Assembly: GCA_003661105.1 (NCBI GenBank) | Contig: QMVM01000001.1 | Location: forward strand, 1 to 32,058 | DNA length: 32,058 nt | Source of the DNA: Methanosarcinales archaeon | GTDB lineage: Archaea > Halobacteriota > Methanosarcinia > Methanosarcinales > Methanogasteraceae | Direction: 5' to 3' | Shown: in pieces, positions 7,092-32,058 of the stretch | Layout: the number at the start of each line of letters is the position of its first letter | Numbering within the stretch: the first letter of the stretch is position 1 | The notes under the pieces: model-generated | What the model was told of the DNA's origin: nothing | What the model saw: only the letters and a program-made list of their open reading frames with translations | Databases searched by the model: none | Made by a program: the position numbers and the translations under genes

Positions 7092-7181
7092 CTGTTGGGT
7101 GTGTTCTGTTGTACTTGCTCAATTAAGTTGTGGTCACTCTTCCACCCTGGGATCGTGGATTTCTTTCACATTTGCAAAGGA

Positions 7182-7383
7182 TCATCTGTAGATTCCAGTG
7201 CTTTCCATTGCCACCGATGGGGCGTCGTTCTCTTTAAGCCAGTTTCGCAATTCAAGCAGTCCATTGTGATCTGTTGAGAATCTCTTGATTATCGGCTCTT
7301 CCACGCCACTGATCATGATTGCAGCGAAGACATAAGAGTTTGTGGACGTCGATGCCACAAACTTTATTTATCTTTTGATCCAT
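7182..7383 (-). pseudogene. IS110-family (DEDD) transposase, N-terminal stub, frameshifted and truncated
   Basis: The minus strand from ATG 7383 reads MDQKINKVCGIDVHK. After a 1-nt frame change near 7335-7340 it continues SYVFAAIMISGVEEPIIKRFSTDHNGLLELRNWLKENDAPSVAMESTGIYR*. GIDVxK and AMESTGIY are the signature N-terminal motifs of IS110 transposases. Similarity stops at about 7190. It is too short for the ORF track. Confidence 0.7.
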
Positions 7384-7580
7384 TATGATACCTCTGGTAA
7401 TCGCTTGAAAGCCCGCTATCCGATGAAATTCAAAATTTCAGCTTGGCACTCGTGGTTTAGACCACAACAGCATTAATCTGTGGCTAAAACAGTATTTTTA
7501 GATTGACGATTCCCCATTATGGCAGTTGTGGTTGCATAAGACAATCCGACGTTCCCAGAAACTAATAAAAAGACTCTTCA

Positions 7581-30248: not shown

Positions 30249-30321
30249 GGCCGGGGCCGGGATTTGAACCCGGGTCGTGGGATCCACAGTCCCATAGGAT
30301 GACCAGCTACCCTACCCCAGC
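30249..30321 (-). tRNA. tRNA-His (anticodon GUG)
   Basis: The minus strand reads GCTGGGGTAGGGTAGCTGGTCATCCTATGGGACTGTGGATCCCACGACCCGGGTTCAAATCCCGGCCCCGGCC. It folds with a 7-bp acceptor stem, anticodon stem UGGGA/UCCCA, loop CUGUGGA, T-arm CCGGG-TTCAAAT-CCCGG and discriminator C. Neither CCA nor G-1 is encoded. Confidence 0.85.
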
Positions 30322-30356
30322 ATTGTGGTTGGGTGTCAATCATAAGATTGCTTGAG

Positions 30357-30366
30357 AATATAAAAA
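30357..30366 (-). promoter_or_regulatory. TATA-box-like element upstream of tRNA-His
   Basis: The minus strand reads TTTTTATATT about 36-45 nt upstream of the mature tRNA 5' end. Confidence 0.4.
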
Positions 30367-30369
30367 GGT

Positions 30370-31016
30370 TGGCTTGCAGCGGGGGTGCGCCAGCGTAAAT
30401 GTTCCTCGTGTTCTTCGTATGATCTGGTAAGTTGCGATATATCAGCGACTATCTGAGCCAGGCATACACCAAGATCGGTACGAATACGGTGGAAAAATGA
30501 AATTATTGTAATCCGTGTAGTGGCTTCGGCGTTGTTTCGCAGACCGTGGCTGATAGGGCTTTTAGCCACAGATTAACACTGGAGCGCCGAGATAAATTCA
30601 CACTCGCCAGCTGGTGAAAATCCGAGCCTCGAGGAAAGGATAGCCACCACCTCCTAACTGAACCCCGCACCCGGTCCGGTAACGGACTGATGTGAGGCCG
30701 GGGGGATGGGATACCAGGCCACAACGAAGGGTGTTCGGTTATAAGCCCGAAATTCTGATGATTCCGGAAGCCGACGTCTTCAGTGTGACGGAAACGCTGC
30801 ATTCACACCACCGTTAGTCGGGTCCTCCGGTCTTGGAATATAGCAGAGAGTTCTGGGGCATTGCGAGGTGATGGGAGTCAGAGCGCGGTCTCGGACCATA
30901 GCACGGTATCAATGGGGGTGCTTGGGTTCTCGGGATGCCCAATATGCTCTCTCCGTAGTAAGAGTATGCGTTATCAAGCCTATAAACGGCAAGATACCGC
31001 AAATGGCGTATTGGGA
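30370..31016 (+). ncRNA. Unassigned ~650-nt structured noncoding region (candidate group II intron domains I-III on the plus strand, or another large RNA)
   Basis: It has no credible ORF and many local helices. The stable-class tetraloops appear only on the plus-strand reading: gC-UUCG-Gc at 30523-30530 and GUCCG-GUAA-CGGAC at 30674-30687. GUGCG lies at 30385-30389. See findings. Confidence 0.35.
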
Positions 31017-31061
31017 GTAGCAGATTAAGAATAGGGCGGTTACCCGCCCTTTCTCATCTCA

Positions 31062-31095
31062 GAACGGTGCGTGAGACTTTCACCTCACACCGCTC
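31062..31095 (-). ncRNA. Group II intron domain V
   Basis: The minus strand reads GAGCGGUGUGAGGU-GAAA-GUCUCACGCACCGUUC. It is 34 nt, with the AGC catalytic triad, a 2-nt bulge and a GAAA tetraloop. Domain VI follows at about 31020-31058 (GAUGAGAAAGGGCGG-GUAA-CCGCCCUAUUCUUAAUC, with a bulged A). Confidence 0.88.
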
Positions 31096-31706
31096 AAGCA
31101 TTTCATAACCCTTTCAGTACCTGGGCGGCTGTTTGGTCCTATAATCCCAGCATTCATGCACATAGTCCAACCTTTTGGTTTATCCCATCTCGTCTTGTAC
31201 CAGTTACTTAGTTTCAGAGCCTTCTGTCTGAGTTTCCCCGGTTTAAAGTACTTTAGATCGAGATATGGATTTTTATCCAGCTTCAGACCGATATGTCTAA
31301 CAATCTTCATATCTGAAAAGCGTTTTAGCCGGTTCTTCTTCATAGAGAACACCCAGTTTCGCATCCCAATGCTATGCCAGTACTTTCTGGCAATCCACTT
31401 CTTGGATTTGTTCGGATGTCTCCTCTTAGCCCATCTCCAGAGCATATTCCAGACAGTACTGTCTAATTTGCTGAATACCTATTTAGATACGACTGAACGA
31501 TGGTAATTCGACCAGCCAGTAATGATGGGATTCAGAGCATTGATGAGGTCCTCCTGTTTCCAAGCTTTCGCTCGTTTGATCACGTCACTGATCTTTCGAG
31601 TGACTTTCTCAATCGACTTCCTGGATGACTTTTGGCATAATCCAAACCATGATATATACCACCGATGAAGACGGTGATGTTCCGCAGGTTGAGATCTGGG
31701 TTTCAC
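31080..31706 (-). pseudogene. Group II intron-encoded protein, C-terminal (thumb/maturase X domain) remnant with an in-frame TAG
   Basis: Track ORFs 31479-31706 and 31080-31445 are in the same frame. They read ...LINALNPIITGWSNYHRSVVSK*VFSKLDSTVWNMLWRWAKRRHPNKSKKWIARKYWH..., with TAG at 31481-31479. The LNPIIxGWxNYxR and WAxRRHPxKS motifs are typical of the maturase domain. RT motifs 1-6 are absent. Confidence 0.78.
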
Positions 31707-31789
31707 GGGCTAATATCGAGTGGCACATCCTCGATCTCCCGATTGGGCGTGGCGCGGGCTGAATTATAAAATTGTCTAAAAATTAAGTT

Positions 31790-31814
31790 GGTGAGACACT
31801 ATATGCATCTCACC
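31790..31814 (-). terminator. Hairpin plus U-run downstream of tfb
   Basis: The minus strand reads GGUGAGA-UGCAUAUAGUG-UCUCACC, followed within 8 nt by UUUUU. It lies about 65 nt after the tfb stop. Confidence 0.35.
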
Positions 31815-31877
31815 TTCCCGTATCACAATCACATAACACGAAGCACCAGCGAAACCCCTTAGCACCCCCACCCGGGA

Positions 31878-32058
31878 TCACAGTATGATCTCGATGTCCA
31901 GTTCCTCTGCGAGTTCCTTGTACCGGTTGCGGATCGTCACCTCGGTGACACCGGCAACCTCTGCCACCTCTCTCTGGGTCCTGCGCTGATCGCACTCGAT
32001 TGATGCTATGTATATCGCAGCAGCAGCAACTCCGGTAGGTCCGCGTCCGCTCGTAAGC
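31878..32058 (-). CDS. tfb: Transcription initiation factor B (TFB), C-terminal part; the N-terminus lies beyond the window
   Basis: My translation is ...[56 protein letters not shown], the second cyclin repeat with the HTH of archaeal TFB. It is absent from the ORF track because it has no start in the window. Confidence 0.88.

Follow-up and report, generated by a model that had tools for sequence, protein, structure and literature searches.

Does a gene-free stretch of a contig from an uncultured methane-cycling archaeon hold an undescribed structured RNA, or do its many helices have a more ordinary origin? The DNA analysed, referred to as the window, is a stretch of 32,058 nucleotides (nt) from a Methanosarcinales archaeon (assembly GCA_003661105.1, contig QMVM01000001.1), and the interval at issue, positions 30370-31016, lies between a tRNA-His gene and the 3' end of a group II intron fragment on the minus strand. 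The original prediction described this interval as free of open reading frames (ORFs) and packed with helices on the plus strand, and proposed that it was either domains I-III of a plus-strand group II intron abutting the minus-strand one, or a large structured RNA next to a tRNA gene. The comparisons described here indicate, with a probability of about 85%, that the region consists of the dead remains of two mobile group II introns, one nested in the other, namely the 5' part of an intron of a family termed B on the plus strand and the 3' part of an unrelated intron of a family termed A on the minus strand.

The plus-strand sequence at 30582-31018 corresponds to nt 1-447, comprising domains I and II, of the approximately 2.0-kb family B intron. 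It matches nt 5-446 of the reference B copy (2008 nt, with the ATG at nt 559) at 84% identity and is 79-84% identical to full B copies, which, together with the covariation of the family, bears out the assignment to the 5' part of a group II intron. The Rfam model RF02005 (group-II-D1D4-6) matches 30617-30898 on the plus strand with 39.3 bits (E 3e-9 in a 1.9-kb search; gathering threshold 49), and the homologous locus L053, which holds a sequence 79% identical to window 30560-31018, scores 92.3 bits and carries a 443-amino-acid (aa) reverse transcriptase (RT) ORF and its own domains V and VI on the same strand. L053 was among 80 loci recovered by a genome scan with the protein remnant of intron A, and more B copies came from the contigs of three relatives of the B protein and from 119 loci that a conserved 23-mer retrieved from metagenomes. 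The copies tallied comprise 33 of full length, 11 without an ORF, 20 that are 3'-truncated inside contigs at many positions and 66 cut by contig ends. The protein of family B is an RT/maturase without an endonuclease domain and has thousands of relatives; the family is abundant in metagenomes of anaerobic methanotrophic archaea (ANME) and Methanosarcinales, and the intron relatives derive from ANME-1, ANME-2 and Methanoperedens bins. An ANME-2-like archaeon is the probable source of the window. Domains V and VI of the full-length copies, GAGCCGGAUGAGGGAAAUCUUCAAGUCCGGUUC...CUACUCGAC, are unlike those of family A. Rfam scans find no plus-strand domain V in the window, though domains V and VI are both present in full B copies, and the B element is thus a fragment rather than a complete intron. 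A tblastn search of the window with the B protein, which is present in the 33 full copies elsewhere, likewise gives no match.

The folding of this fragment is that of the family. In an alignment of domains I-II from 42 distinct B copies, the consensus comprises 117 base pairs, 38 of which show compensatory changes, and 97.5% of cells are paired, against 94.4% after shuffling (none of 500 shuffles reaches the observed values) and about 38% with the partners slid. Many conserved G-U pairs are compatible with the plus strand only. A plus-strand reading is also supported by the lower minimum free energy of that strand (-226.7 kcal/mol, z -3.08, compared with -195.9 kcal/mol, z -2.19, for the minus strand) and by the stable tetraloop hairpins with stems of at least 3 bp, of which there are four on the plus strand and two on the minus strand. 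The lack of a protein-like ORF holds as well, as the longest ORFs are 99 aa (minus) and 55 aa (plus) and give no Pfam match above threshold. Three nested long-range helices, with closing helices at 30587-30591/30929-30933, enclose everything up to 30933, including the hairpin of exon-binding site 1 (EBS1), and the whole block is therefore domain I. Two of the helices noticed at the outset are conserved in the alignment: GUCCG-GUAA-CGGAC (30674-30687) is the covarying helix 9, and the three-way element closed by CCCAAUAUGC/GCGUAUUGGG (30938-31015), which forms domain II, comprises the strongly covarying helices 21-23 (e.g., GC:17/AU:10 and AU:30/GC:9). The proposed GUGUGA/UCACAC helix (30783-30808) is not a family helix; its UCACACC pairs instead with the downstream GGUGAUGNGAG in the covarying helix 17, and its 5' arm shares four bases (GUGU, 30783-30786) with the EBS1 loop. 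Beyond domain II, 38 full copies read GGGAGUC/GGAUCAG, followed by a covarying domain III and a domain IV hairpin with the start codon, none of which occurs in the window. The 44 other copies run on through ...GGGAGTCGGATCAG into domain III, and the window and one other contig, L206, change sequence at that position. The proposed domains I-III therefore reduce to domains I and II, domain III being absent. The window copy retains 105 of the 117 consensus pairs (12 broken), the lowest number among the 42 copies, which points to a non-functional relic.

The 5' boundary of the B fragment is set by homology and by its pairing with the adjacent DNA. Similarity among independent B insertions begins at G-N-G-Y-G-CCGAG, which places the 5' splice site of the window copy at G30582 with GAGCG at 30582-30586, a start also found in full-length copies (L131). 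The consensus for group II 5' ends is GUGYG, with which the window agrees at G1, G3, Y4 and G5 and differs at position 2 (A). Across the family (L081-L210), C, A and U all occur at position 2, full-length copies with intact ORFs included (e.g., L184:1371-1820 and L131:11303-11727). The EBS1 loop CAGUGU (30781-30786) pairs at all six positions with the 5' flank ACACUG (30576-30581), its intron-binding site 1 (IBS1). In nearly every copy (about 40), the 6 nt 5' of B are complementary to the same hairpin loop and change in step with it, the matched IBS1/EBS1 variants being ACACAG/CUGUGU, ACACUG/CAGUGU (window), ACGCAG/CUGCGU, CCACAA/UUGUGG, AUGAAG/CUUCAU and AAACAG/CUGUUU. This covariation fixes the B splice site at 30582, and the motifs previously assigned these roles are therefore chance matches. 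GUGCG at 30385 had been taken as the intron 5' end, but no family copy shares sequence upstream of 30546 and homology to 44 other copies sets nucleotide 1 at 30582; CCCCGC, taken as the EBS1 partner of GCGGGG, is the 5' strand of the conserved helix 8. The reported interval is accordingly intron from 30582 onward only, and about 210 of its 647 nt are not.

The DNA that B entered is itself repetitive. The palindromic repeat of 30546-30581 flanks B in both orientations at L104, L116, L119, L153, L158, L171, L184, L193 and L199, and the predicted GUGGCU/AGCCAC helix (30546-30551/30564-30569), which does exist, belongs to this repeat rather than to the intron. The B homing sites, as seen in the 5' flanks of L092-L210, are approximately 10-nt tandem and palindromic repeats with CACAGA-N3-4-ACACAG. 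A second repeat arm without an intron, TTTTAGCCACAGATTAAT, is located in the window at 7472-7489 (minus strand) in the intergenic region 7092-7580. Head-to-tail B pairs with one 10-nt repeat unit between them occur at L053:458-707 and L019:3319-3507 and look like successive insertions into neighbouring repeat units.

The minus-strand piece is the 3' end of a family A intron. RF00029 (Intron_gpII) matches 31020-31097 with 58.0 bits, above its gathering threshold of 40, which confirms that the B fragment abuts the domain V/VI end of an opposite-strand intron; among the Rfam scans this match passes its threshold, whereas that of the plus strand to RF02005 falls below. The 3' end is exact in about 60 relatives with unrelated 3' flanks. 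Further upstream on the minus strand lies a protein remnant comprising the maturase/X domain (residues ~358-518 of 519; Pfam GIIM, E 3.5e-27), to which the protein of the A-reference locus L004 is 75% identical by tblastn over 31640-31158, and which contains an in-frame stop at 31479-31481. Homology to A ends at 31632 in every relative, so that the last 613 nt survive (31020-31632); in terms of the 2236-nt reference, the window retains nt 1607-2236, and its nt identity to full-length copies is 81-82%. The L004 protein matches PDB 6ME0_C ('Maturase reverse transcriptase'), presumably the TeI4h RT, over residues 26-501 with an E-value of 1e-151, compared with 2e-40 for LtrA and 1e-28 to 1e-35 for class IIC RTs. 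By protein similarity, family A appears IIB1-like. It is unrelated to family B, the B protein of L053 aligning to the L004 locus at 28% identity in tblastn. The EBS1 of A is located in the loop GGCU[N6]AC of a conserved hairpin and is complementary to the intron's own 5' flank at 5 or more of 6 positions in 7 of the 14 copies scored, rising to about nine if a 1-nt offset seen by eye is allowed. The 5' starts of the A family vary and include GUGCGAC, UUGCGAC, UCGUGAC, CCGUGAC and (Y)UGUUGAC (L034:731, L039:4421, L036:959, L215:1162 and L004:4393). A 5' U is used functionally by TeI4h (PMC2882425).

The two pieces meet at a junction that is shared with other contigs. Other B copies read ...GGGAGTCGGA. 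In the window and in L206, B sequence gives way after GGGAGT (31018) to ...CTTAATCTGC in reverse complement, and this is precisely the 3' terminus common to about 60 A-type introns. With a slash at the junction and read on the minus strand, the sequence is AATCTGC/TACTCCCAAT (AATCTGC/TACTCCC) in the window and AATCTGC/GACTCCCAAT (AATCTGC/GACTCCC) in L201. The independent metagenome contig L206, from another sample, matches 30313-31891 at 99.3% identity and has unique DNA to either side of the junction. L201 carries A nt 485-2236 joined, through the same junction, to B nt 448-45 in reverse complement, and in L215, reverse-complemented B nt 1602-448 are followed by A nt 4-2177. The general form of the 5' junction is GAGC(T/G)(G/A)ATCC and then NNGTGACAAGAAG. 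The EBS1 of the A intron in L215, GGAUUG, pairs with the flank AAUCC at 5 of 6 positions. The A parts of the window, L201 and L215 are 85-91% identical to one another and represent three diverged copies. Of the two origins that had been proposed for the inverted arrangement, antisense nested insertion is thus the one upheld, as L201 and L215 contain the same junction together with the rest of both introns.

The resulting layout of the locus is as follows.

30249-30321, minus strand: tRNA-His (GUG) gene, from Rfam tRNA (58.7 bits) and ARAGORN; context, outside the element.
30322-30398, minus strand: upstream region and probable promoter of tRNA-His, kept with the tRNA in relatives.
30399-30545, no strand: lineage-specific spacer with no assignable feature, including the stretch adjacent to GUGCG and GCUUCGGC.
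30546-30581, plus strand: 5' exon and homing site of intron B, with the palindromic repeat hairpin GTGGCT...AGCCAC (30546-30569), AGATTA and IBS1 ACACTG (30576-30581).
30582-30933, plus strand: domain I of intron B, from homology, the RF02005 match and covariation.
30934-31018, plus strand: domain II of intron B, with the three-way element of helices 21-23 and B sequence homology through GGGAGT (31013-31018).
31019, no strand: junction nucleotide, A in the window, equivalent to C447 of B and still C in L201.
31020-31097, minus strand: domains V and VI of intron A with intact 3' end, from RF00029, with ...CUUAAUCUGC finishing at 31020.
31098-31632, minus strand: distal domain IV of intron A with the C-terminal protein remnant, from Pfam GIIM and tblastn.
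31633-31885, no strand: DNA between the putative deletion breakpoint and the next gene, without assignment, containing a promoter-like motif at 31764-31801.

These features occupy a gene-free block of 1.56 kb that is bounded on one side by the minus-strand tRNA-His gene and on the other by the end, at ~31886, of a minus-strand ORF that exits the window; the genes upstream encode a PurP-type ligase and a DUF234 ATPase. The region 30322-30398 contains a TATA-like TTTATATT at ~30350-30357, read on the minus strand upstream of tRNA-His, and is conserved with the tRNA in L089 and L214 (to 30369) and L211 (to 30398), where the neighbours further upstream differ. From its position and sequence it is probably the tRNA-His promoter. 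The spacer 30399-30545 matches only L206, from the same population, and L091, whose PurP is 95% identical and which shows 88-92% nt identity up to 30467, the end of that contig; relatives at 86-88% PurP identity give no match to it, and an Rfam search of it returns no match at E<=10. The predicted GCUUCGGC hairpin (30523-30530) is present in this spacer with a stem of only 2 bp and is conserved no further than the closest relative. The DNA at 31633-31885 shows no similarity to intron A or intron B and matches L206 only, apart from a 35-38-nt motif in L106. This promoter-like motif, TTATAAAATTGTCTAAAAATTAAGTTGGTGAGAC (31764-31801), is 95-97% identical to L106:12320-12357, which precedes an AbrB-like ORF; the window copy faces the 3' end of the adjacent minus-strand gene, and a hairpin comes after it.

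The arrangement suggests the following history. The approximately 2.0-kb B intron would have retrohomed on the plus strand into the intergenic region that separates tRNA-His from the next gene, beside the palindromic repeat, with pairing between its EBS1 CAGUGU and ACACUG at 30576-30581 as the guide. The unrelated, IIB1-like A intron would then have used its own EBS1 to reverse-splice, as a full-length element, into the strand antisense to B at a site exactly between domain II and the J2/3 linker (between B nt 447 and 448). As A lies antisense, it could not be spliced out of a B transcript, and B would have been permanently split. A later deletion, probably a single one, would have taken A nt 1-1606 and B nt 448-2008, leaving B domains I-II (30582-31018, plus strand) tail-to-tail with the last 613 nt of A (31020-31632, minus strand). 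On its own strand, each piece lacks a complete catalytic core; both are accumulating mutations, and no function is expected.

Several points weigh against this account or limit it. No empty site or intermediate is found at the locus, so that the order of events and the single deletion are reconstructed: none of seven PurP relatives (84-95% identical), all of which have tRNA-His and its promoter, provides a pre-insertion state, as upstream of tRNA-His the contig ends (L090, L091) or a different neighbour is present (L089, L211-L214). The A piece in the window lacks domain I, and its EBS1 is therefore not comparable with the insertion site. The lack of function is argued from anatomy and decay, and similarity to PDB entries is not decisive for the class of family B. 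In addition, domain I of the window B copy is closer to L153 (96%, 92%) than to the B part of L201 (85%, <81%), which a single inherited composite does not predict, although gene conversion among B copies could be an alternative source of this likeness.

The last point leads to the alternative that a sub-lineage of A regularly uses the antisense strand of B between nt 447 and 448, the insertions in the window, L201 and L215 being independent and in different B copies. This would alter the history of the locus and leave its anatomy unchanged. Three diverged composites with an identical junction would fit such repeated homing, as would the closeness of the window B copy to L153, which has no such junction in the region compared, and the match of the L215 EBS1 to the site. 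There is also precedent in Thermosynechococcus elongatus, where F3 introns insert repeatedly at one conserved F1 site (PMC2882425). However, there are only three cases, each interrupted by a deletion or by the end of its contig; similarity among the inner A copies does not exceed that among the outer B copies, in contrast to T. elongatus; gene conversion could account for the L153 likeness; the close A relatives L216 and L217 are located at other sites; and no such junction occurs among about 60 other A-type 3' flanks, except for a contact in L053 at a different B position. A IIB1-type lineage in ANME and Methanosarcinales specialised in antisense homing at the boundary of B domain II and J2/3, with the window locus as an eroded recurrent product, is thus conceivable but doubtful, and the same tentative standing applies to the three insertions being independent. 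The L053 contact, at L053:380-604, is a second antisense one, in which the 3' end of an A-type intron adjoins domain I of B in reverse complement, near B nt 137.

A functional RNA, whether a new one across 30370-31016 or domains I-II acting in trans as part of a split trans-splicing intron, would be in keeping with the better-than-shuffled folding of the plus strand (z -3.08), with the intact 6/6 pairing of EBS1 and its flank, and with the occurrence of split group II introns in organelles (PMC4424553). Against it, 30370-30581 is not conserved past the closest relative and has no Rfam match, the intron part has the most broken pairs among the 42 copies, the 32-kb window contains no partner B domains III-VI and its single domain V is that of A, and breaks of this kind are common, as 20 B copies are truncated inside contigs at many positions. 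A functional RNA is therefore very unlikely, and the idea of an undescribed large RNA beside the tRNA gene is rejected. An assembly chimera from mis-joined reads of two repeated introns might be suspected because both introns are multi-copy and 66 B copies are cut by contig ends in these metagenomes; the same junction in the independent L206, over 1580 nt and with unique DNA on both sides, shows that it is not a mis-assembly, and the diverged form in L201 and the complementary 5' junction in L215 make a chimera more improbable still. The idea that plus-strand domains I-II and minus-strand domains IV-VI once formed one intron whose 3' half was flipped by DNA inversion draws on the adjacency and tail-to-tail orientation of the pieces, which together amount to roughly one ORF-deleted intron. 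The halves come from different families, however: full-length B has a different domain V/VI and a protein that is only ~28% identical, the whole length of the minus-strand piece matches A-type introns, A-type domain I is unrelated to that of B, and L201 and L215 show complete A sequence at the junction. With the two families unrelated, inversion of a single intron is effectively ruled out and the least credible of the explanations. Taken together, these comparisons favour the antisense nesting of A in B followed by erosion.

Further features of family B were observed in the course of the comparison. Among PDB entries, IIC RTs come closest to the B protein by a small margin (1e-50 vs 1e-44). 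Class IIC introns insert immediately after a stem-loop and have a short EBS1 and no EBS2. A hairpin is located 12 nt upstream of the intron in the window and several other copies, but many copies lie inside palindromes rather than after them. The B EBS1 is 6 nt long, and no consistent partner for an EBS2/IBS2 pairing was seen in a comparison by eye of flanks and domain I loops, made without a systematic scan. ORF-less derivatives of approximately 690 nt, which consist of domains I-III and V-VI and have lost the RT gene, occur at L099, L106, L120, L121, L137, L143, L179, L188 and L195. Gene-called ORFs of 130-170 aa with no Pfam match extend over B domains I-IV at L081:2570-3004, L087:547-1065 and L086:2606-3004, and the covariation pattern argues that they are artefacts. 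The sequence GTGCGCTATG...CTCGAC, which precedes the second B in L053 and L019, was considered as the start of an intron or as evidence of circular permutation; both ideas were rejected, since it is the distal and 3' strand of B domain VI and stands at the end of every full copy. In L135, the two contig ends (130-152 and 4804-4826) have identical B starts with identical flanks in inverted orientation, perhaps through a fold-back in the assembly or else a genuine inverted duplication.

Archaeal group II introns are largely confined to Methanomicrobia, and Methanosarcina acetivorans contains nested arrays that arose from repeated homing into other introns and were trimmed by deletion (PMC4424553; PMC8919778). 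In T. elongatus, whose introns are of class IIB1, one intron has a conserved site into which others insert, and intron fragments are also present (PMC2882425). The twintrons of both organisms resemble the present locus in EBS-IBS-guided homing into a conserved site of another intron, in non-essential DNA, with later erosion (PMC4424553; PMC2882425). The same two families also form sense-nested pairs like those twintrons in L017, L019 and L021, with A-like introns in the domain V loop of B (L017:1034-1124, L021:1121-1210) or in its domain III loop (L019:3185-3303). Unlike in the twintrons, the inner A of all three composites (window, L201, L215) runs antisense to B and the pair is not splicable, the site is the boundary of domain II and J2/3 instead of domain IV or the ORF, and both partners in the window are truncated. 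As truncated, non-autonomous leftovers, the T. elongatus fragments TeI3g, TeI3m and TeI3n do not differ in substance from the remnant in the window (PMC2882425). The window B copy shares its sequence family and fold with RF02005 and the ANME/Methanosarcinales family of 443-aa RT/maturases, and lacks their domain III, domain IV with the ORF, and domains V and VI. Compared with TeI4h-type IIB1 introns, the A relative likewise aligns to 6ME0_C and has canonical domains V and VI, whereas the archaeal A protein is shorter (519 vs 562 aa) and its C-terminal endonuclease part is apparently absent, judging from the extent of the alignment.

The helix-dense stretch is thus ordinary genomic debris in methane-cycling archaea and not a new RNA, and what is unusual is limited to the antisense orientation of the inner intron and its location between domain II and J2/3. 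No major open question is touched. For annotation, a 1.3-kb ORF-free, structured intergenic block is explained as two intron relics, which cautions against reading a new RNA into it, and the 42-sequence alignment of domains I-II, the EBS1/IBS1 rule for B and the EBS1 loop of A are useful for cataloguing archaeal introns. The locus provides a documented case, in uncultured methane-cycling archaea, of group II introns serving as landing pads for one another, antisense and at a defined, EBS1-guided site, and so bears on the competition and persistence of selfish introns in archaeal genomes. Recurrent antisense homing, if true, would represent an intron-against-intron relation in which, in contrast to a sense twintron, the host intron is irreversibly disabled.

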